From IMG/VR virus record IMGVR_UViG_2778261576_000005, positions 1-37,529 of that record: DNA of 37,529 nucleotides. The stretch is one strand, 5' to 3'. Under the pieces are notes generated by a model. The model worked only from the letters and a program-made list of their open reading frames with translations, had not been told where the DNA came from and did no database searches. The DNA is from a virus. Lineage: Duplodnaviria > Heunggongvirae > Uroviricota > Caudoviricetes. The position numbers and the translations under genes are program-made. This document shows, one piece after another, positions 8,285-24,107 of the stretch (its first letter is position 1; each line of letters opens with the position of its first letter).

Positions 8285-10117
8285 CTACCTGAACCGCGTA
8301 TAGCCAACATCATGGCTGACATCAAAACCGCTGGATCGCGTTTCCATAACCCGCATACCCGGAGGCGAATTCACAAAAGAGACCTTGATCTCACCATCAA
8401 CTTTTGGCGCAGAAGCTTTGTTAATCATGAAGGGATTCTGGCCTGTGGCATCGGAGGCGTTGTTTGACTGAGCCGGATCCACCGCCGGATAAGGTGTGTA
8501 TCCCCGTGCCGGTATTCCCGTCCCATAAGCATCATAAGCACCCGCGCCCCACTGCGCAGAGTTAATGGCATCGACCGTGTCACCGGAACTGTCGGTAAAC
8601 CACTCAATAATTGGCTTCAGCTTGTCCCACATATCCTGAAACCACTTAACAACCGGTCCCCAGTTATTGATTACCATCCCCAGCGGCGACCAGGCAAAAA
8701 CCTTCTTCAGAAGTTCCCAGCCAGCCTCAAAATAAGGACCAATGGTTTCCCAGAGCTTCTTGAAATAAGGTCCGACAACATCCCAGTTAGTGATAATTAA
8801 TCCCGCAGCCAGGGCTATCGCCGTCGCAATCATGCCAATCGGCGTCATCGACATGATCCTGCTGACAATACTGATGGCACCGCCAACGCCCATCAATCCC
8901 AGTTTCAGAATCGCAAGACCGGCAGCAAGCCCGACGACGCCGCGAATAACCCGGGGATTTTCATCCGCAAACTTCGTGAATTTCTCCCCCAACTCCCCCA
9001 GCCATTGTGTGATATTTTTAGCGTCACCAGAAAATGCGCCGCCAATAGCCGCAAGGCCGTTAGTTGCGGTCCCTGTCATTGCCTCCCACAGGTTGGACAG
9101 CGTACCAAGCTGTGCCTGAACACGTTTATTCAGGCTGGCCTGTTTATTCATCTTCTGCTGGATCTGATCGTAGCCATCCTTTCCTTTATCGATTAGTGCA
9201 TTGACCACCTGAAGAGTTTCGGCATCATCACCAAATATTGCCTTAAGTACACCTGTTCGCTTAACGTCGGTCAGTTTTCGCAGCTTTGCCAGTTGCCTGA
9301 ACATGTTATCAAGACCGCCAAAACTCCCTTTGCCGTCAGTAAAATCGAGCTGTACCCCGAGTTTCTGGCGGGCCATGATTTTATTAACGTCCCTGATTTT
9401 CTTAACGCTTAATCCGGACTGGATAACTTTTCGCAGGGCATTACCTGCCGACTCCCCGTTCATCCCCATCTGATCCATCATGACGCTGATGGGGGCAAGG
9501 CTCTGTGCAGCCTGAAGACCATCCTTGTTCACCATCTTCAGAACAGAACTGGTTTTAGTGAAGAAGGACAACATGTTGGTATCGTCAACGCCCAGATAAA
9601 ACGCCTTCTGGATAGTGTCGAACAGCCCCATCATGTCTTCTGACGCCGTTCCGGTAGCATCCTGCATCTTTGCAGCAAACTCAGCAGCCGCTTCCGGTGT
9701 TTTTTTCAGTTGTACCGCAAGATAAGCTGTCGCTTTACCCACACCACCCAGAATGTTTTCTGCCGGGATCCCCTGACGCACCAGCATCTGCATCATGTTC
9801 TGGAAATCAGCCGTTGTACCGGGTAGCTGGTTACCCAGGCCAATAGCCAGTTTATTGATGTCCTGAAAGCGCTTTCCAACCTCGCCGTTCGCATCCATCA
9901 TGGCGACTTTCAGCCCGGTGGCGGCGTTTTCCTGATCGGCATAAGATTTCAGGGAAAGCGTCAGACCCGCAGCCAGTCCGCCACCAAGCGCCAGCCCACC
10001 CTGTGACGCTTCTTCCGCCTGGCGTTTAAATCCCCGGATTTTCTTTTGCATTTTCGACAGCGCGGGAGAAAGCCTGTCGACACCGGTGATCAACGCCTTA
10101 AGCTCAAATTCAGCCAT
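8285..10117 (-). CDS. Tail tape measure protein
   Basis: 610 aa; Gly/Ala-rich with hydrophobic segments; follows the frameshifted chaperone pair. Confidence 0.85.
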   Translation of the reverse strand: MAEFELKALITGVDRLSPALSKMQKKIRGFKRQAEEASQGGLALGGGLAAGLTLSLKSYADQENAATGLKVAMMDANGEVGKRFQDINKLAIGLGNQLPGTTADFQNMMQMLVRQGIPAENILGGVGKATAYLAVQLKKTPEAAAEFAAKMQDATGTASEDMMGLFDTIQKAFYLGVDDTNMLSFFTKTSSVLKMVNKDGLQAAQSLAPISVMMDQMGMNGESAGNALRKVIQSGLSVKKIRDVNKIMARQKLGVQLDFTDGKGSFGGLDNMFRQLAKLRKLTDVKRTGVLKAIFGDDAETLQVVNALIDKGKDGYDQIQQKMNKQASLNKRVQAQLGTLSNLWEAMTGTATNGLAAIGGAFSGDAKNITQWLGELGEKFTKFADENPRVIRGVVGLAAGLAILKLGLMGVGGAISIVSRIMSMTPIGMIATAIALAAGLIITNWDVVGPYFKKLWETIGPYFEAGWELLKKVFAWSPLGMVINNWGPVVKWFQDMWDKLKPIIEWFTDSSGDTVDAINSAQWGAGAYDAYGTGIPARGYTPYPAVDPAQSNNASDATGQNPFMINKASAPKVDGEIKVSFVNSPPGMRVMETRSSGFDVSHDVGYTRFR

Positions 10118-14563: not shown

Positions 14564-15772
14564 TTACGCCGCTGCAATCTTCAGCAGTTTGATGGCCTGC
14601 GAATCGACCAGCATCCCGCCGGTGCGCTTGGTGGTATAAAAACCGACAAACGGTTTATTGGTGTACGGGTCACGCAGAATGCGGGTGCCGATACGGTCAA
14701 CGATGGTGTAACCCCGTTTGAAGTTACCAAATGCAATGGCTTTCGCATCAGCGGCGATATCCGGCATCTGTTCGTTTTCAGCGATACCGTAACCCGCCAG
14801 AGAGGACGGCTGCCCCAGTTCCAGCCCCGGACGCCACAGATAGTTACCCTCGGTGTCTTTCAGCAGACGGATGGCAAACAGGCTGTTGTTGTTCATCATG
14901 AACTTCGCGCCAGTGCGGTGTGCCTTACGCAGCGTGTAAATCAGTTTGATAATGGCGTCTGCGGTCACCGCGGTCGCTTCGCCGGATACAATATGCTGAA
15001 GTTTGCCGAACGCCCGGACCTTGTCGGTTTCATCAGTGGATTCATACGCCAGGAACCCTTTCGGCTTCTTGGTGCCATCGCCTGAGGTAAAGGCAATTTC
15101 TTCCTGTTCGGCAAATTCGGTTGCCAGCTCGCTGTTAATCCAGGCCTCCACGTTGAAGAAGGCATCGTCCAGCATTTTCTGGGTAGCCTGCGGGTTGCCG
15201 TAGATTTCCCCCATGAGAGGTTCAATCAGCTCCAGTCTGGAGGTGGCAGTCTGGGATCGCGTATCCGTTTCCCCCACCCATCCGGAAGCCGTACCGCCCA
15301 GATTCACCAGTTTTTTGTAGTCGGAACCGCCAACGGTGATCACCGTGGCTTCCTGACGCATCACCACTTCATCTTTCAGCAGGTTAAGAATGTTGCGATC
15401 CAGTTCTTCCGGCACGGCGTAGCCACCGTCTTCATCGGTACCCACCTGCAATGCCTTACGCTCCAGATCGCGCAGACCGTCTTCACGGCCTTTACGTAGA
15501 AAGCCCACAAACGCCTCTTTATGCTCGGTGGCCAGTTTATTTTGCGCTCCACCTGCCGGACGTTTCAGCTCAAGCAGCTCTTTTTCAAGGTCGCTTTTGA
15601 GATTTTCCAGCTCGCTGAGTTTTCCGTTCAGGGTTTCCACCTGCCCGGCAAGCTTGCCTTTTTCCTGCTCAATCGCATCCACGCGCTTGTCGTTCTTTGC
15701 TTTGAAGTCGTCAAACTTCTGCTGCAGCTCCTGCGCGACCTGTTCGACATCTTTAATATCAACCGCCATCAT
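14564..15772 (-). CDS. Major capsid protein, HK97 family
   Basis: 402 aa; N-terminal coiled-coil delta-like domain then capsid fold region; follows prohead protease. Confidence 0.85.
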   Translation of the reverse strand: MMAVDIKDVEQVAQELQQKFDDFKAKNDKRVDAIEQEKGKLAGQVETLNGKLSELENLKSDLEKELLELKRPAGGAQNKLATEHKEAFVGFLRKGREDGLRDLERKALQVGTDEDGGYAVPEELDRNILNLLKDEVVMRQEATVITVGGSDYKKLVNLGGTASGWVGETDTRSQTATSRLELIEPLMGEIYGNPQATQKMLDDAFFNVEAWINSELATEFAEQEEIAFTSGDGTKKPKGFLAYESTDETDKVRAFGKLQHIVSGEATAVTADAIIKLIYTLRKAHRTGAKFMMNNNSLFAIRLLKDTEGNYLWRPGLELGQPSSLAGYGIAENEQMPDIAADAKAIAFGNFKRGYTIVDRIGTRILRDPYTNKPFVGFYTTKRTGGMLVDSQAIKLLKIAAA

Positions 15773-15783
15773 ATTTCTCCTGA

Positions 15784-16470
15784 TTAGAAGTTCAGATTTT
15801 TCAGTGCATTCAGTGCAGAGCCCACATCCTCAGCGTCGCGCAGGGACAGTGCGCCATAGCCCCCGGCCATGAATGCTTTGGCCTGGGTACGGGAGAGTCC
15901 GACATCACGCAGGACTCTTTCGATTTTTTTCTGTTCGGGGATTTCCCCGCGGGCCAGCGCGTTCTTGACGTCGCTGATCCGCGCCTCGTCGTTAGACGGA
16001 AACGTCACCAGACTGACTTCCCAGAGGTCGATTTCTTTCAACAGAAAGGCTTCTTTGCTCCGGTCGTATTCCCAGTCTTTCAGGACGTACCCAATAGAAA
16101 GGCCGGTTAACGAACCGGCCTTCATGTGTGCATGTGCGCGTTTTGCGAGGGGATCATCATCAATGAGCAACCGCCCCCTGACGTAAAGCCCGACATCGTC
16201 TTCCTTCATTTCGGTGTAAACACCGATGGGTTCATCCATGCGGTGCTGCCAGAGCAGCGCAGGTAACGCTTTTCTGTCACTCCACGCCCGCAGGGAAGCA
16301 GCAAATGCCCCGGACATCACCACATCATCGTGGCTGTCCTTTACACCAAAGACGGAGCCATACCCTTCAAACTCACCGGAGTCACTGACAGATTTCAGAC
16401 TCAGCGGTACATCAAGACGTTGTTTCGTCTGCATTGGCGTTATCCTTCTGCTTACCGGCTTTACTGCCAT
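15784..16470 (-). CDS. Prohead protease, HK97 family (likely start at 16434)
   Basis: 228 aa ORF; AAGGA SD precedes the internal ATG at 16434; lies between portal and capsid. Confidence 0.8.
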   Translation of the reverse strand: MAVKPVSRRITPMQTKQRLDVPLSLKSVSDSGEFEGYGSVFGVKDSHDDVVMSGAFAASLRAWSDRKALPALLWQHRMDEPIGVYTEMKEDDVGLYVRGRLLIDDDPLAKRAHAHMKAGSLTGLSIGYVLKDWEYDRSKEAFLLKEIDLWEVSLVTFPSNDEARISDVKNALARGEIPEQKKIERVLRDVGLSRTQAKAFMAGGYGALSLRDAEDVGSALNALKNLNF

Positions 16471-17653
16471 CGGAGGGTTTCGTGGTCATGTTCATCGGTG
16501 TGAGATAGACATCCCCACCGGGACGCGGATTCATATCTTCCAGGTCGCGGCAGTCATTGGGAGAGTAAATTCCCCAGTTAATCCCGGTGGCGTAGGCTTC
16601 AAAACGGGACTTCATATCCCCGCGCAGTAACGCCCCGGCGTTAAATTTGGCGTAATAAACGCCCTGCTTACTTTTTCGTACCAGTCCGGTGTTGATCCGC
16701 TGCTCAATGCGGGTCAGATACGGCACCAGTGAATAGTTGATAAATCCGAGCCCCAGCTCTTCGATATTGTTGAAGGTGGCGCGATCGGTGTTCTGCACCA
16801 TGTGCAATGGCACACGGAACAGACGACAAATTTCTTCAAGCTGAAACTTGCGGGTTTCCAGGAACTGGCTGTCCTCTGCGTTCAACGCCATCGACTTCCA
16901 GTCCAGCCCCATCTCAAGGATCATCGGGCGGTGAGCATTGCCAAGCCCGGTGTGACGCTCCTCAAAATCTTTCTTCAGGCGCTCATAAGCCTGATCCGAC
17001 AGCGTCTGCTCTGTACGCAAAACACCCGACGTCACCGCGCCATTGCTGAACAGTCTGGCCCCGTGCTCTTCGGTCGCTGCCGCCAGCGATATTGCCTCGC
17101 GGGCATAGGCGATGGGATTCAGCCCCACCAGTCCGTCCAGCGTCAGCGTACGCACATGCCAGATATCCTCTTGGCTCAGTACATCCGTGGAGCCATCCGG
17201 GAATGTGACCTGATAGATCGGCTCCCAGCTACTGTTAAGCTTCGGTACCACACAGCCGGGATCGACGGGCAGCAGTTCAGCCACTTCGCCAAATGCTTTC
17301 ACTTTGTAGGCGTAAAAGTTTCCCCGCAGGCACAGACAGGTGACCACCAACTCCCAGAACTCCTGCGGCGTCATATAGCCATTGGGATGCGTGGAGATCA
17401 GCTTATGCAGACGTTCGCCAGTGGCTCTCTGCTTCAGGCTGCCGTTCAGGTGATACAGATTGCAGGGCAACATCCCGACCGACTCTGCCAGCACCCTGAC
17501 GCAGGAAAAAACCGCCGTCAGTCGCATGGCCCGCTGGCTGCTGATCTGCTTTCCGGTATAGGTGTCGTATGACAGCCCGATAGCATCCGCCAGCTCTGCT
17601 GGCGTGGTCACCGGTGTGTCACTTTTTCGTTGAAATAATCCCGAAAAGAACAC
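16412..17653 (-). CDS. Portal protein, HK97 family
   Basis: 413 aa; GTG start with GGAGG SD 6 nt upstream; follows TerL. Confidence 0.85.
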   Translation of the reverse strand: MFFSGLFQRKSDTPVTTPAELADAIGLSYDTYTGKQISSQRAMRLTAVFSCVRVLAESVGMLPCNLYHLNGSLKQRATGERLHKLISTHPNGYMTPQEFWELVVTCLCLRGNFYAYKVKAFGEVAELLPVDPGCVVPKLNSSWEPIYQVTFPDGSTDVLSQEDIWHVRTLTLDGLVGLNPIAYAREAISLAAATEEHGARLFSNGAVTSGVLRTEQTLSDQAYERLKKDFEERHTGLGNAHRPMILEMGLDWKSMALNAEDSQFLETRKFQLEEICRLFRVPLHMVQNTDRATFNNIEELGLGFINYSLVPYLTRIEQRINTGLVRKSKQGVYYAKFNAGALLRGDMKSRFEAYATGINWGIYSPNDCRDLEDMNPRPGGDVYLTPMNMTTKPSDGSKAGKQKDNANADETTS

Positions 17654-17835
17654 TATTTACCTCCACCAACAGACATCTGTGTACGGTCGAGATATCGCGC
17701 CACCAGCCACGACCAGAACAGGCACAACGCCCCGGCAACAACAAACCCCGCAGGGGGATAAATCAGCCAGGCACCATACGCCAGCAAAAGCACCCCCAGC
17801 ACGCCCACCAGAGGCGCGAGAATCAGCATGATCAT
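17653..17835 (-). CDS. Small two-helix membrane protein between terminase and portal
   Basis: 60 aa with two hydrophobic helices; GAGG SD; its stop overlaps the portal GTG (TAGTG). Confidence 0.5.
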
Positions 17836-17846
17836 AATTACCTCAG

Positions 17847-19580
17847 TTAAAGCGAGCGGATCCCGTAGGACTCAATGTGATCAGACAGCGTGTCTTCTTT
17901 CTCGTACAGCATGGCTCTGCCAACCGCCATAATCAGCGCAACTGCACCGTCAATTTTGTTTTCCGCCTGCTCTTTGACGGGTTTCACCACATCATCGTTA
18001 CCCGGCATGTTTTTGCCGACCACGTTGCCGATACACCAGGTCATGATGGGATTGCCGTCATGATGAAAGCGTCCCGATTCAATCGCTGCTTCCAGCTCTT
18101 TCATCGGATCGGACATATTGGCGAAGTTCTGGACGATAGTGACGGGATTCAGATCTTCATCAGCAAGGTCATGTGACAGCCCGGTCGCCCCGAAGGGGTC
18201 GATGGGTGACTCACTGACCGGGCTGATTTTGTTCGCCGCTTTGGCCTCCTCGAGGATGTAGCGATAATCCACCTCTGCACCATCGGTAACGGTCAGGACG
18301 CCCATTTCCACCCATTTCTGAAAGCGTTCGGCTGTCCGTCTATCTTCATTTTTCTCGACGCTGTACACCGTGTCATACGGTACCCAGAAGCGCGGGGCCA
18401 CACTGTAGTAATGCGTTTTACCGTCAATCTCGCGGGTATAAAGTCGCGCCATGCTGTTCATATCCAGCTTACGCGCCAGGTCAAAGGCCAGAATGCACGG
18501 CTGCCCCTCGAACTGCTCAAGGGTCAGTGATTTATCCTCGCAGCTCTGCCAGCTCACCAGGTTGAAATACGCCGAACGCGCCGACACCCAGATATTGAGG
18601 TGTTTTGTTTTAAAGACGTTTGCCAGACGGGCGTTATTTTTCGCACGCTGCTGCTGACTTAACAAAAATTCGCGATAAACCGACACGCCAATATTTGGAT
18701 TGGCTTTTTCCAGCACCTGCGGGTCGGTCCAGTCGTCACCTTCATCAACGGTATAGATGATCCCGAACAGTTCATCGTTAGGCACCGAGCCGTTGAGCAT
18801 CTCGATGACTTCCCGCCGCTTGTCGTAGCACGGCCCCTCAATGTTGTACCCGGCGGTGGTGATGGCCCACATCAGTGGCTGACGTCGCGCCCCCATCCCG
18901 GTAAGCATTGTGGTATAAAGCGCATCGGTGGCATGCTCGTGATATTCATCAACCACGGCACAGTGGGGTGATGAACCATCACCTGGGTTGCCGATCAGCG
19001 GTTCAAACCGCGCGCCATCCTCCGGACGGTTCATGTTTGAGGCGTTAACCTCAATCCCGAACGCTTCCGTCAGCATGGGGGTGCGTTTACACATCAGTCG
19101 CGCCGGGCGAAAGACTTCCCACGCCTGTTTCTCTGTCGTGGCACCGGAATACACTTCCGCGCCAAACTCGTTATCACAGGCAAAACAATACAGGGCAACA
19201 CCGGCAGAGATTGCTGATTTGCCGTTCTTACGGGGGATTTCGGTGTACACCTCCCGGAAGCGGCGCAACCGGGTGCCTTTATTGACCCAGCCAAACGCAC
19301 AGCAGATCACAAAGAGCTGCCACGGCTCCAGCGTGATGGGCATCCGTTTGAATGCCCACTCCCCCTTGGTGTGCGGCAACAGCTGAATAAATTTCGCGGC
19401 CCGTTCAGCCAGGTCCTTGTCGAAGCGGTAACGAAACGACTTACTTTTTTCCGCCATCAGGTCATCAAGATGGCGCTGGCAGGCCTGAATCACAAACTGG
19501 CAGGCCACAATCTTTCCGCGCACGACATCACGGGCATACTGATTGGCTGCATTTACGTTGGGGTAAGATTTCCGGCTCAT
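17847..19580 (-). CDS. Terminase large subunit
   Basis: 577 aa; ATGA overlap with TerS stop; canonical position. Confidence 0.9.
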
Positions 19581-20080
19581 GATTCGATAATTTTCAGAAA
19601 CGGGTTAGTGGCTTTCTTCTGCCCCGCCAGGCCAATCAGACGCTGGCGGCTGCTGGGGTCGAGTCCGAGCATTGCCCCCGTGCTGCTCATCTCGGACTCC
19701 TGTTCTTTCTTGGCGGTCAGCTCCGGATTTTTGACCATACCGCCCATTGCACCGGTGATGGTGTTGCCCTGGCTGGCAATATTTTTCACGGCACGTCGCC
19801 AGAACTCATAGGCTACGCACCACCGCTCAAGCACCGCGAGGTCAGTCACGCACAGCAGGCCCTGACCGCAGAGTTCTTTGGTTGTCAGTTGCCACATGAT
19901 CGTGGCGAGAGGGAGATTTTCTTCTGCGAACCACTCCGGTGGCTCAACGCCTTTGATGGGCGTAAAAACAGGTTCATCTTTGTTCAGGGCTCGCTTGCCG
20001 GGGTTTCCGGCCAGCGCCTTGCGCGCCGTTGGCTTGGGGCGACGCCCGGAACGCCCCGCCGTTCCAGCCATATGCGGCAC
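19577..20080 (-). CDS. Terminase small subunit, P27 family (likely ATG start at 20071)
   Basis: 167 aa ORF; basic N-terminus GRSGRRPKP; AGGAG SD upstream of the ATG at 20071. Confidence 0.8.
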
Positions 20081-20196: not shown

Positions 20197-20547
20197 TCAC
20201 TTAAGCCGTTCACGGGCCGTCTTCGCCTTATGACACGGCCAGCACAGACTCTGCAGATTACAGTCGGCATCAGTGCCGCCATGCGCTTTAGGGATGATGT
20301 GGTCAACAGTTTTCGCCTCACGCACCACACCAGCACGCAGACATAACTGACACAGGCCTTTGTCACGCTTCAGGACACGCGCGCGGATACTGTCCCACTT
20401 CGAACCGTAGCCGCGCTGATGACGGGATTGTCCAGGTTTGTATTGCTTCCAGCCTTCGCTTTTGTGGCTTTCGCAGTAGCCTGAAGGGTCTGTGGTTGTA
20501 TGGCGGCAGCCGCGAACACGGCAGGCTTTCGGGGTTCGTGGCGGCAT
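20197..20547 (-). CDS. HNH endonuclease (terminase-associated)
   Basis: 116 aa; DHIIPKAHGG...CWPCHKAK HNH motif plus N-terminal Cys cluster. Confidence 0.85.
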   Translation of the reverse strand: MPPRTPKACRVRGCRHTTTDPSGYCESHKSEGWKQYKPGQSRHQRGYGSKWDSIRARVLKRDKGLCQLCLRAGVVREAKTVDHIIPKAHGGTDADCNLQSLCWPCHKAKTARERLK

Positions 20548-21140: not shown

Positions 21141-21602
21141 TCATTTCAGGCATTGCGTCCTGATGTACTCCTGCAGGTAGTTAACCTGCGCGGTTATCCT
21201 GTCGATTCCACTTCGGAGACGGTAATAATTGAGTTCAGCATCTGCTGTAAGTCCTGGACTTTCTCCATCGCCCATGCCGCTGGCTCCGGTCGTTGACTTT
21301 GCACAGGTGGCGGCGACTTGCAGGCGCTTACGACCAGCAGAAACATCAGCACGGAGACTTTCGATAGTCGCGTTAGCATCAGCAAGCTCCTTTGTATATC
21401 TGGCATCGAGTTCTGCTACGTCACGTTGACGCTTCTGCATATCAGAGATCGTCGCCATAGCCGAATCTAATGCCATAGCGTTTTCGTCGCGCTGTTTTTT
21501 GTATTCAATGGCTTTATTGTGATAATGATTAGCTGACCAGACAAGACCACCAGCAATACAAGCAATAAACGTTAAAATGAGCGCCCAATAACTCATCTTC
21601 AT
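21141..21602 (-). CDS. Rz-like i-spanin
   Basis: 153 aa; N-terminal TM then coiled-coil; follows endolysin; contains embedded lipoprotein ORF. Confidence 0.7.
   Translation of the reverse strand: MKMSYWALILTFIACIAGGLVWSANHYHNKAIEYKKQRDENAMALDSAMATISDMQKRQRDVAELDARYTKELADANATIESLRADVSAGRKRLQVAATCAKSTTGASGMGDGESPGLTADAELNYYRLRSGIDRITAQVNYLQEYIRTQCLK
21194..21406 (-). CDS. Rz1-like o-spanin lipoprotein embedded in Rz (+1 frame); true start probably internal
   Basis: Lipobox LVVSAC followed by Pro-rich segment KSPPPVQSQRPEP. Confidence 0.55.
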   Translation of the reverse strand: MPDIQRSLLMLTRLSKVSVLMFLLVVSACKSPPPVQSQRPEPAAWAMEKVQDLQQMLNSIITVSEVESTG

Positions 21603-22213
21603 ACCAGCAGCGCCGCCCGCGCCTTGTTGTATCGGACCTTACGATCCTCAATACCGTTCAGACCGCCGTTAATGATGCGCGTAACACGGTTAATATCGGC
21701 ACCGTAGATCATGCAACCTTTAGAGGTGTAGAACCATGCAGCTGAGCGCGCAGCCTGTAGTTCCTGTTCCAGTTGTTCAGGTGAAGTCACCAGATCTAAC
21801 TTCAGCGCCGCGCCACAGATGCGATAATTATGGAGGCCAGTGATTTGAATTAATCCTCTACCACGATATTTCCAGCCATCACCTAGTGCTTTGTTACCCA
21901 GTCGGTTGCTATACACCAGATTGGCAATAGCATCCTGACGAGCTGCATGTCCGGATGTTCTGCCAAGGGCATCAGCCTGCTGCTGTGTGATCCTCTTTCC
22001 GAACGTCGCCACAAGCGCAGATGGTGTGTAGTTAAGATTTTCAACTACGGCGCTAAACCCCATCGACTCATGGCCTGCCTGAGCGATAAACATTGCCTGA
22101 TCCGCTGGTGCTGTAATGCCGAATTCCTTCATCGCCGCATCAATGTGCGGAAACCAGCGCGCAGCCAGCCCGGCGCTAATACCAGCCGCCTTTTGAAATA
22201 ATTGTTGGTTCAT
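21599..22213 (-). CDS. Endolysin, glycoside hydrolase family 19-like
   Basis: 204 aa; position between holins and Rz; family assigned from recalled similarity. Confidence 0.75.
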   Translation of the reverse strand: MNQQLFQKAAGISAGLAARWFPHIDAAMKEFGITAPADQAMFIAQAGHESMGFSAVVENLNYTPSALVATFGKRITQQQADALGRTSGHAARQDAIANLVYSNRLGNKALGDGWKYRGRGLIQITGLHNYRICGAALKLDLVTSPEQLEQELQAARSAAWFYTSKGCMIYGADINRVTRIINGGLNGIEDRKVRYNKARAALLV

Positions 22214-22494
22214 TAGTGCCTCAGATGATCAACCAGACGTGCAACGTTGCCTCTGACGGCCACCAGCACGGAAAGAAAAATAGTATTCGCCACGATAATG
22301 GGCCATGAGGAATGGGGATAAATCCCACAGAGATAGGCCAATGGAACAGCACTGTATGTAACAGTAATCAGCCAGGCTAAACGTGAAACCCAAGGACGAT
22401 GCCGCGAATCACCACGACGATAAAACATCAGAGTAATAACAACACAAGCACATAACAGCGCATTTATAGTTGCTGTCGGGTCATTTAGCTCCAC
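22213..22494 (-). CDS. Holin / lysis membrane protein
   Basis: 93 aa with 2-3 hydrophobic helices directly upstream of endolysin. Confidence 0.55.
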   Translation of the reverse strand: MELNDPTATINALLCACVVITLMFYRRGDSRHRPWVSRLAWLITVTYSAVPLAYLCGIYPHSSWPIIVANTIFLSVLVAVRGNVARLVDHLRH

Positions 22495-22867
22495 CTGAAC
22501 CTCCCCGGCGCGTTATGAGCGCCACCAGCGAGCCGATATCCTGATTATTCAGGAACGTCAGGATTTTAACGGCTAAAGCAGAGACGATTACGGCACCAAT
22601 AGCATCCAGAGGTTTATCACTGTATCCGGTCAAGTTCGCCAGCTTGGAGCCAACCAACCCAGAGCAAAGGATCCCGGCAATATATGACACGATAAAATAT
22701 GCCAGTCGGCGCGATGCTCTCAGATCTGCTGCTGTTGCTATGTAGAATACAGCCCCTGCAAATGCGCCAAATACAACGCCGTAATCAGTTCCGGTCAGCA
22801 GTCCATAAACACTGGCACCCGTCAGGGCACCACCAGCCAGCCCAGTACCGGAAATCGGATCGGACAT
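22481..22867 (-). CDS. Holin-like membrane protein
   Basis: 128 aa, Gly/Ala-rich with 3-4 predicted TM helices; GAGGGGG SD. Confidence 0.55.
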   Translation of the reverse strand: MSDPISGTGLAGGALTGASVYGLLTGTDYGVVFGAFAGAVFYIATAADLRASRRLAYFIVSYIAGILCSGLVGSKLANLTGYSDKPLDAIGAVIVSALAVKILTFLNNQDIGSLVALITRRGGSGGAK

Positions 22868-22946
22868 TTAGCCCCCTCTTAATTGCTGTTGGTCCTCTCA
22901 GATATGAGGGGAAGGGATCTTAATGACAGTCTGTTTATTATTTCAG

Positions 22947-23204
22947 TCAAACACTACCCTGTTGATGATTTCTCAGAAGCGAACTTGACTCCCAAGGGAA
23001 ACTCAACTTTCCGTTAAAACCACCAGCAGACATTCGTTCAATTTCCACAGAAATATCACTGAGCCGTTCTTCAAGCTCTGCTTTTTCTTTTACCAGACGG
23101 TTATAGCGGCTTAGATGAAGCTTTTGCTGCTCCAGCCAGTCTTCAAGCTGTTCAACAGTCATACCAGGGTTAAAAAAATATGGCTGCTGCTTTTCGCCCT
23201 GCAT
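22947..23204 (-). CDS. First late-operon gene, hypothetical (85 aa from ATG 23204)
   Basis: GGAGG SD 6 nt upstream of ATG at 23204; the longer track ORF would run through tR'. Confidence 0.45.
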   Translation of the reverse strand: MQGEKQQPYFFNPGMTVEQLEDWLEQQKLHLSRYNRLVKEKAELEERLSDISVEIERMSAGGFNGKLSFPWESSSLLRNHQQGSV

Positions 23205-23223
23205 TATTGACCTCCAGAAAAGC

Positions 23224-23247
23224 AAAAACCCCGCCGAAGCGAGGTTT
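23224..23247 (-). terminator. tR'-like intrinsic terminator in late leader
   Basis: Minus-strand CCTCGC-TTCG-GCGGGG hairpin followed by TTTTT, about 45 nt downstream of the PR' -10. Confidence 0.65.
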
Positions 23248-23294
23248 GTTATGATTTCGTTAACGGCAGACATACAAAGCCCATCGTTAGGAGA

Positions 23295-23323
23295 ATCCTA
23301 ACCATATTTTTTGAAAAATGCAA
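23295..23323 (-). promoter_or_regulatory. PR' late promoter (TTGCAT-17-TAGGAT), qut expected here
   Basis: Hexamers with 17-bp spacer about 30 bp downstream of the Q stop. Confidence 0.55.
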
Positions 23324-23354
23324 GCATCATGTCGCCATCTTCGGCGAAAATCAT

Positions 23355-24107
23355 TTATCTTGTCACTTTTCTCAATTGTGTCTCTGCATATGCTTCTTCC
23401 TGCCAGCACTTTGTAACCAGTTTATCAATGACATCTGCATATCCTTTGTACCACTGATAATCCGTCAGATCCGGTACCAGCTTCTGGACATGATGCCGCG
23501 CCAGTGTGGTTGGTAAACGGCTAAACCGGTTTCCATTGCAACGCCCACAAATCTTATAAACAGGCGCACCATGAAGCCGGGTTCTTTTTTCATCCAGTAC
23601 AATACCTTTCCCCTTGCACCCTCTGCACGCTGTGCTGACTTCTCCCTTACCATGACAATGCTGACATAGTTCCTTCACCCACTCTTCCTTGATAACAGAT
23701 TCCCCGCTTCTGGAGTGTTTCACCACTTCGCGCAATACATTATGAAATCCAGTACCAGCACAATGCTCACAGCGAGCCTTACTTGCCGCAGACCTGGAAT
23801 AATCAGCAAAGGCAAAATTCACAAGGTAAGGGATGATCTGTAACCGGGTTTCTTCACTCAATTTGTTCAATGTCGGGTTATCCAGTGCCATCGCGTAATT
23901 GAGCAGACCTTCAATCGCAAACTGAGGATCCTGAACACCAACTTTTGCCAGGAATAAGGCAAACCCAAGCGGTGCTTTCGACTGCACCATCCCCTGCGCA
24001 GCCATTACATCCGTAATTGTTAAACCACCAGAGCCTGTCGCCGGTGCGTCATCGCTCAATTTTGGAGATTTTGGGGAGTAATATTTTGGTAAGGCTTCAA
24101 GGTTCAT
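23355..24107 (-). CDS. Late antiterminator Q-like protein (QuuQ-type, 250 aa)
   Basis: Directly upstream of PR'/tR'/lysis genes; four CxxCxGxG-type motifs; DUF968 gene adjacent as in Qin prophage. Confidence 0.65.
   Translation of the reverse strand: MNLEALPKYYSPKSPKLSDDAPATGSGGLTITDVMAAQGMVQSKAPLGFALFLAKVGVQDPQFAIEGLLNYAMALDNPTLNKLSEETRLQIIPYLVNFAFADYSRSAASKARCEHCAGTGFHNVLREVVKHSRSGESVIKEEWVKELCQHCHGKGEVSTACRGCKGKGIVLDEKRTRLHGAPVYKICGRCNGNRFSRLPTTLARHHVQKLVPDLTDYQWYKGYADVIDKLVTKCWQEEAYAETQLRKVTR

Follow-up and report, generated by a model that had tools for sequence, protein, structure and literature searches.

A YmfR-family gene for a predicted membrane hairpin between the genes for terminase and portal of an HK97-type head module, and its linkage to the portal

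The DNA analysed here (the window) comprises positions 1 to 37,529 of IMG/VR virus record IMGVR_UViG_2778261576_000005 (Caudoviricetes) and is a prophage similar to SfI, SfII, SfIV, ST64B and phiP27. Between its genes encoding the terminase large subunit (TerL) and the portal protein there is a small open reading frame (ORF; 17653..17835, minus strand) of 60 sense codons followed by a TAG stop. This small ORF is the intact-prophage ortholog of YmfR of Escherichia coli K-12, that is, an already named, known and widespread gene. We propose with high confidence, taking them jointly, the identity of this gene, the logic of its expression as a cistron coupled to the portal start, and its linkage to the portal gene.

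Identity of the small ORF and its linkage to the portal gene

The window protein matched phrog_502 ("membrane protein") over residues 1–55 of its 60 with an E-value of 7e-28, and 58 of the 60 residues are identical to those of YmfR from the e14 cryptic prophage of strain MG1655 (b1150), a protein of equal length. Neither a significant Pfam match (none at E ≤ 1) nor any match in NCBIfam, PADLOC or the PDB sequences was obtained for it. The equivalent ORF has been annotated as a putative integral membrane protein in SfII (SfII_03), ST64B (sb3) and P27 (L37), and is unannotated in the SfIV records KC814930 and NC_022749. A preliminary description of this DNA had regarded a membrane protein in the packaging block as unusual. 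However, the Prokaryotic Genome Annotation Pipeline assigns the label ymfR ("protein YmfR") in 1336 of 5426 complete E. coli genomes, about a quarter of them, and the superfamily described below has at least 450 clusters at this place, so that this opinion could not be maintained.

All the packaging and head genes of the window are on the minus strand, and the expression signals of the small ORF were read directly from the sequence. Its ATG (17835-17833) is preceded by a Shine-Dalgarno (SD) sequence, GAGGT (17840..17844), placed 4 nt before the start codon and 6 bases past the TAA stop of TerL (17849-17847). The TerL gene itself occupies 17847..19580 and encodes a protein with PF03354 and PF20441 domains. 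At the other end, the ORF reads GGT GGA GGT AAA TAG, the G of its stop codon (17655-17653) being at the same time the first base (17653) of the GTG start of the portal gene (16412..17653; PF04860, E 6e-108). The SD sequence of the portal, GGAGGT (17659..17664), is contained in codons 57–59 of the small ORF, which accounts for the Gly-Gly pair at the C-terminus of its product. A 60-residue ORF with its own SD and with its stop overlapping the portal GTG had been reported in the preliminary description, and these features were confirmed. Both the 1-nt overlap and the position of the portal SD within the ORF are conserved in all the Enterobacterales loci that have it.

The linkage of the small ORF to its two neighbours was studied in 80 contigs carrying the same TerL. 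In 65 of these a YmfR was accompanied by a portal of the window type and in 8 an SfV-type ORF was accompanied by an SfV-type portal; 7 loci were truncated and no mixed combination was counted over the 73 scorable ones. Conversely, loci selected by their portal retained the small ORF beside four types of TerL, with identities of 99, 82–89, 58–62 and 36–38%. In addition, the mosaic boundaries found in SfV, SKA5, phi467 and 606R7 were all located upstream of the small ORF. On these comparisons the ORF travels with the portal and not with TerL, which can be exchanged without losing the ORF. Three further loci, in which TerL, YmfR and portal sequences of enterobacterial type stand under Gram-positive or alphaproteobacterial names, probably reflect contamination or mis-binning: OR844959.1, a 1764-bp record named "Enterococcus phage Efm 3-10" with TerL, YmfR and portal of enterobacterial type (84.5% nucleotide identity); a contig of a "Bacillota bacterium" metagenome-assembled genome (L087) whose portal is 99% identical at amino acid level; and a "Martelella alba" contig (L100) that bears an alphaproteobacterial label and a portal 78% identical at amino acid level.

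The small ORF is not a constant part of these modules. It is absent from HK97, in which TerL and portal overlap directly, and the same direct overlap was observed in 25 of 80 sampled modules, although the portals of these are 55–71% identical to that of the window. Those lacking it are Gilliamella, several marine gammaproteobacteria, Acinetobacter and one Pseudomonas locus. The absence from HK97 and from these modules indicates that the small ORF is accessory.

The remaining packaging and head genes are arranged around it in the order HNH endonuclease (20197-20547), small terminase (19577-20080), TerL, small ORF, portal, prohead protease (15784-16470) and major capsid protein (14564-15772), all on the minus strand, and this head module is intact, unlike that of e14.

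Selection on the peptide, its predicted structure and its distant relatives

About 20% of shuffles of the small-ORF sequence keep a 60-codon frame open, so that the open frame alone is not significant, and it is its conservation that makes the gene so. In viral contigs with a portal at least 99% identical to that of the window, the ORF was intact in 80 cases out of 80. This is the opposite of what the preliminary description had named as a reason to abandon its view, namely that close relatives whose portal start is unchanged would lack the ORF. Among 80 species-representative genomes gathered with the portal profile, 55 loci carried the small ORF and in 53 of them it was intact. The two frameshifted copies were found in L089 (a second copy in Shigella flexneri SFBU0723) and L115 (Xenorhabdus bakwenae), with the TerL frame intact in both cases. 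The pairwise ratio of nonsynonymous to synonymous substitutions (dN/dS) was 0.29 over the full length of the ORF and 0.22 when only residues 1–46 were taken, the adjacent portal gene giving 0.08, and the third codon positions of the ORF varied twice as much as the first and second ones. Purifying selection is strongest in the membrane core, while the tail (residues 47–60) is free to evolve and its dN is saturated.

These data bear on the explanation that the small ORF is an expression device, in which a cistron with a strong SD hands its ribosomes to the weak GTG of the portal and so sets the portal:TerL ratio, the peptide having little function. The conserved 1-nt overlap and embedded portal SD of the Enterobacterales loci speak for such a device, the Gly-Gly pair is a by-product of the SD, and in loci lacking the small ORF the TerL stop overlaps the portal start in like manner. 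However, the selection on the peptide, the retention of its sequence motif over at least 450 clusters and a hydrophobicity far above that of shuffled open frames speak against it, and there are members without any overlap, separated from the portal by gaps of 12 nt (L258) and 25 nt (L265). We consequently regard the expression device as improbable, and the proposal that the ORF is simply a coupling leader was rejected given the dN/dS values and the invariant Gly, Pro, Trp and Cys residues, even though the portal SD and the start overlap do lie inside it. A related idea, tethering of polysomes to the membrane through co-translational recognition by the signal recognition particle, was discarded by reasoning, as little of a 60-residue product can have emerged from the ribosome by the time of its release.

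Two other features of the nucleotide sequence were noted inside the ORF. The first is codon 54 (17674..17676), which is hypervariable, with 7 codons for 6 amino acids among relatives of about 98% identity (TCG 59, CTG 13, ATG 12, CCG/CCA 12, CAG 3 and ACG 1). The variation is in its first two positions, with the third almost invariable, the other changes in the ORF being almost all synonymous or singletons. The codon belongs to the cytoplasmic tail and lies 22–24 nt upstream of the portal start, and its variability could be due to diversifying selection, to a mutational hotspot or to selection on the portal initiation region. The second is a G+C-rich hairpin followed by TTTT at 17790-17817 (minus strand), within codons 7–19. 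The authors of the SfII genome annotated a rho-independent terminator inside the ORF; with -17.2 kcal/mol and z = -0.84 against shuffled sequences, the hairpin showed no special structure and the terminator was not retained.

The protein was described at first as a small hydrophobic one with two membrane helices, and the present analysis agrees with this. Its only charged residues are R47, D50, R51 and K60, leaving residues 1–46 uncharged, and its grand average of hydropathy (GRAVY) is 1.30. The AlphaFold2 model, of moderate confidence (mean predicted local distance difference test score 72), is a hairpin with helices at residues 2–25 and 27–57. The first helix (17761..17832) holds the conserved G11-x-x-G14...G21, and the turn corresponds to the family signature observed in the alignments (residues 20–31; 17743..17778). 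The membrane part of the second helix (residues 27–46; 17698..17757) holds the conserved G30, G35, C38, L39, W41 and S42. It is followed by a basic and poorly conserved tail, predicted to be cytoplasmic (residues 47–60; 17656..17697), whose last codons are constrained by the ribosome-binding site of the portal. The invariant or nearly invariant positions include G11, G14, G21, P27/P28, G30, G35, C38, W41 and S42. Since the flanks are basic and the turn is uncharged, the positive-inside rule predicts that both ends should be cytoplasmic (N-in/C-in), and the basic N-terminal extensions of distant family members are consistent with an internal N-terminus. A fold search with the hairpin gave best E-values of about 1 against viral models and of 9 against the PDB, a bare hairpin being an uninformative query.

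The family proved to extend further than its annotation. In SfV (L002, U82619.2), where TerL is the same and the portal is only 27% identical to that of the window, the two genes flank an unannotated ORF of 53 codons (2289-2450) that encodes a two-helix protein of phrog_7105. The portal start annotated for SfV, GTG 2392, probably lies 48 nt upstream of the true one. With GTG 2440 as the start, the protein begins with MLLDALFRSKS, which matches other portals, and the overlap becomes one of 11 nt, as in the annotations of EPP-1, 733R5 and VIPKPNMC05. ORFs of the phrog_7105 type are annotated at the same place in phages of Edwardsiella, Klebsiella and E. coli, and Pseudomonas prophages and the phage VW-6S have a related form of 63–69 residues. 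The SfV/Pseudomonas-type ORFs (CFHODIGL_00003 of EPP-1 and VW6S_50 of VW-6S among them) resemble YmfR in position, in the predicted two-helix hairpin and in translational coupling. Unlike YmfR, they lack the YPPAGF motif of the turn, and their overlap with the portal is one of 4 or 11 nt, against 1 nt for YmfR. The Pseudomonas forms, moreover, have a predicted cytoplasmic N-terminal extension of 15–25 residues and are followed by a portal 55–57% identical to that of the window.

Compared head-on, YmfR and the SfV ORF gave a BLASTP E-value of 0.99 and an hhalign probability of 23%, and for the SfV-type ORF only sub-threshold NCBIfam matches (E 0.6 and 0.9) were found. However, with intermediates, a diverse set of sequences was aligned by hhalign to the YmfR clade with a probability of 99.7% and to the SfV/Pseudomonas clade with one of 94.5%, in register over both helices. 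As the diverse set matches both clades, we consider phrog_502 and phrog_7105 to constitute one superfamily. An exhaustive profile search (E ≤ 1e-3) yielded 450 representatives of clusters built at 50% identity, nearly all of them stand-alone proteins of 45–90 residues, and a search for domain fusions among these gave none, only tandem duplications. These duplicated versions, four-helix double hairpins of 102–122 residues, are P0154, P0170 and P0266 (L255, L256 and L262), and two of the three are encoded directly upstream of a portal gene. The distant members have in common the motif D-x-x-G-L-x-G-A-x-L-x-x-YGAWLIY-x-PAGFIV-x-G, usually after a basic N-terminal extension. Of ten distant representatives, eight lie directly upstream of a PF04860 portal and one just after TerL at the end of its contig; the proteases beside such representatives belong to three different families (S78, ClpP and S49), and the neighbours of P0170 had no match in Pfam or PHROGs. 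The superfamily appears to be old and to form an optional cistron of HK97-type head modules, with its constant place immediately before the PF04860 portal gene.

Proposed role, lysis, exclusion and benefit to the lysogen

In the window, a late-control block (21141-24107, minus strand) is located upstream of the packaging genes. It consists of a Q-like antiterminator (23355-24107) and a lysis cassette (21141-22867) with two holin-family genes (22481-22867 and 22213-22494), a GH19-type endolysin (21599-22213) and Rz (21141-21602) with an embedded Rz1 (21194-21406). This arrangement, on the same strand, supports a late-operon cistron, as do the normal G+C content, the lack of a promoter-like site and the induction of e14 ymfR together with the rest of e14, all described below. 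YmfR is very probably a cistron of the Q-dependent late operon and as such a late product of the lytic cycle, with ribosomes that start at its own SD and, on termination, are placed on the start codon of the portal. The protein would sit in the inner membrane as a helical hairpin of 60 residues with both ends in the cytoplasm, and its copies may associate with one another through their glycine-rich helices, as these helices and the existence of tandem-duplicated relatives suggest. Its action probably takes place within the membrane, as conservation is limited to the membrane core and the turn. For this action we tentatively favour, on the model of gp40 of T4, an accessory and non-essential role at the inner membrane that is connected with the portal or with the first stages of head assembly. 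Under this proposal, YmfR would be neither a lysis nor an exclusion factor.

Several observations weigh against a head-related role. The link of the family to the portal is drawn from gene order and co-occurrence, and, with the portal ribosome-binding site inside the ORF, some physical linkage would be expected whatever the function. In a search for a portal feature that varies with the small ORF, loci having it and loci lacking it showed one and the same motif at the portal N-terminus. What the E. coli form offers to a cytoplasmic portal is a tail of only 14 residues that evolves freely and contains the hypervariable residue even where portals are 99% identical. Any role in heads must also be dispensable, because HK97 and 25 of the 80 sampled lineages do without the ORF. 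Finally, deletion of ymfR in K-12 had no reported phenotype (PMC9145139), although, as e14 is defective, this result says little.

Nearly as likely as the role in head assembly is that YmfR is a late membrane effector unrelated to heads, which would tune the triggering of the holin or block the entry of superinfecting DNA, and which would have come to lie beside the portal by an old insertion and become inseparable from the portal ribosome-binding site; this possibility we still consider somewhat doubtful. Its size, its two helices, the predicted N-in/C-in topology and the basic C-terminal tail fit both class II holins and small exclusion proteins. A conserved part that is intramembrane suits an intramembrane target, the presence/absence pattern is that of an accessory gene, and the hypervariable tail residue could mirror an arms race. 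There is also a precedent for a small inner-membrane exclusion protein encoded in a structural operon, gp15 of HK97 (PMC3594210).

However, no similarity to holin families was found in Pfam or PHROGs, nor to defence or exclusion families in PADLOC or NCBIfam, each with zero matches for the window ORF. The window, moreover, is already provided with a pair of spanins, an endolysin and two holin-family genes. Besides, a Klebsiella siphovirus keeps YmfR (68% identity), portal (81%) and capsid protein (84%) and has no relative of the window lysis genes, and in Pseudomonas VW-6S the small ORF likewise occurs without any relative of them. These cases indicate that the ORF is tied to no particular holin or tail type: the holins that accompany it are unrelated, and the tails are of the myovirus as well as of the siphovirus type. 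Its position is conserved over a very deep divergence, which is unlike typical morons. An ASKA ymfR clone survived the first round of a growth-based selection with 0.1 mM isopropyl-β-D-thiogalactopyranoside (IPTG), so it is not overtly lethal, although this is weak evidence (PMC10299036). Nor was a promoter found that would allow expression from the prophage: by a simple consensus scan that weak promoters could escape, no sigma-70-like site was identified on the coding strand within 500 nt upstream, and the overall count of such sites was at chance level. The exclusion or lysis-timing factor suggested in the preliminary description is possible, but it was not favoured by the tests performed, given the complete lysis cassette elsewhere, the unrelated holins and both tail types, and the missing promoter, terminator and compositional island.

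The last three of these features are also among those by which morons are recognised: besides a deviant G+C content and a promoter and a terminator of their own, morons show expression in the prophage state (PMC3594210). They concern a further explanation, that the gene is a moron expressed from the repressed prophage and conferring some membrane-related gain on the lysogen. In PHROGs, the category given to phrog_502 is "moron, auxiliary metabolic gene and host takeover", and the ORF counts as extra DNA with respect to the related phages that lack it. In addition, ymfR is intact in e14 of MG1655 (L169, 4868-6605), between a TerL without N-terminus and a portal without C-terminus, that is, amid pseudogene fragments. 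However, the G+C content of the small ORF is 0.58, within the 0.51–0.60 of its flanks, so that no compositional island exists; in addition to the lack of promoter-like sites, no terminator of its own was found, its stop overlapping the portal start with no room downstream. The mRNA of e14 ymfR increased about 23-fold together with the rest of e14 under a drug inducing the SOS response (PMC10012262), as expected under prophage repression, and the locus, whose deletion has no reported phenotype, serves as a neutral integration site (PMC9145139). The intactness of ymfR in e14 could be due either to retention or to chance survival of a small mutational target of 183 nt, and two frameshifted copies do exist elsewhere. 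Like the expression device, the moron is less likely than the head-related role and the late effector, and we consider it an unlikely explanation.

A more specific form of the portal-related role would be that the hairpins of the YmfR superfamily build an oligomeric inner-membrane platform that nucleates or holds the portal ring or the nascent prohead, as partners of PF04860 portals. We put this forward as a speculative and rather unlikely idea. If it were true, head assembly in a large HK97-type group would start at the membrane, as in T4, and a widespread part of the "canonical" head module would have escaped notice owing to its small size and frequent lack of annotation. More generally, if the hairpin and the portal do act together, the hairpin would fill the place of an accessory component missing from a virus assembly pathway that ranks among the best studied; otherwise, it would simply add to the small membrane proteins made late. 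As a gene it was known before, with a K-12 name, a PHROG family and GenBank annotations. What is added here is its context: a family far larger than annotated, two PHROGs that make up one superfamily, and the portal as the sole constant neighbour across very different phages. On the practical side, public records omit the ORF (SfV and SfIV), misplace the portal start (SfV) or mislabel the ORF as gpW of lambda.

Comparison with known systems

No function assigned to YmfR was found in the literature consulted, where nothing but general texts on holins came up for small membrane proteins encoded between terminase and portal. The closest named relative is YmfR of K-12 itself, which is the same protein, with the same length and position between TerL and portal. 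e14 differs from the window in that the neighbours of ymfR are truncated pseudogenes.

The gpW protein of lambda (PF02831) is likewise the product of a small gene, comparable in length, that is flanked by those of the large terminase and the portal. However, gpW is a soluble protein, as opposed to the membrane hairpin predicted here; BLASTP gave no alignment between them at E ≤ 100 and no Pfam match was obtained, and so the identity with gpW was rejected. Several YmfR homologs are labelled "head-tail joining protein W" (ON470603, ON470584, ON470580 and PQ793804), a mis-annotation due to the resemblance of their position to that of gpW.

Class II holins and pinholins, such as S68 of phage 21, have some 60–70 residues, two transmembrane helices with N-in/C-in topology and a basic C-terminus. 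The window protein is comparable to them in size, in its two predicted helices, in the predicted N-in/C-in topology and in its charged C-terminus. It differs from holins in being encoded outside the lysis cassette, in its lack of similarity to holin families and in that the phage already has two holin-family genes.

HK97 gp15, a YebO-like moron, is a small inner-membrane superinfection exclusion protein encoded within the late structural operon (PMC3594210). The window ORF shares with it the small size, the predicted inner-membrane location and the place in a late structural operon of a temperate enterobacterial phage. The features proper to gp15 are its location in the tail operon, its own promoter and terminator, a deviant G+C content, expression from the prophage and homologs in bacteria outside phages, and the window ORF differs from it in position, promoter, terminator and G+C content. 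The Klebsiella phage ST101-KPC2phi6.3 (L251) has a YebO-like gene (8374-8607) beside the tape measure gene plus a YmfR homolog upstream of the portal, and since one phage carries both, the two genes are distinct.

The initiator of T4 head assembly, the portal protein gp20, is membrane-bound and depends on the membrane chaperone gp40 (PMC9958956). The head of T4 is not of the HK97-module type, unlike that of the window. The likeness to gp40, the one known model of what a membrane protein linked to the portal might do, would be a functional one, that of a phage factor acting with the portal at the inner membrane when head assembly starts, and, as judged from gene order, the small ORF likewise appears to encode a membrane-associated phage protein genetically tied to the portal.

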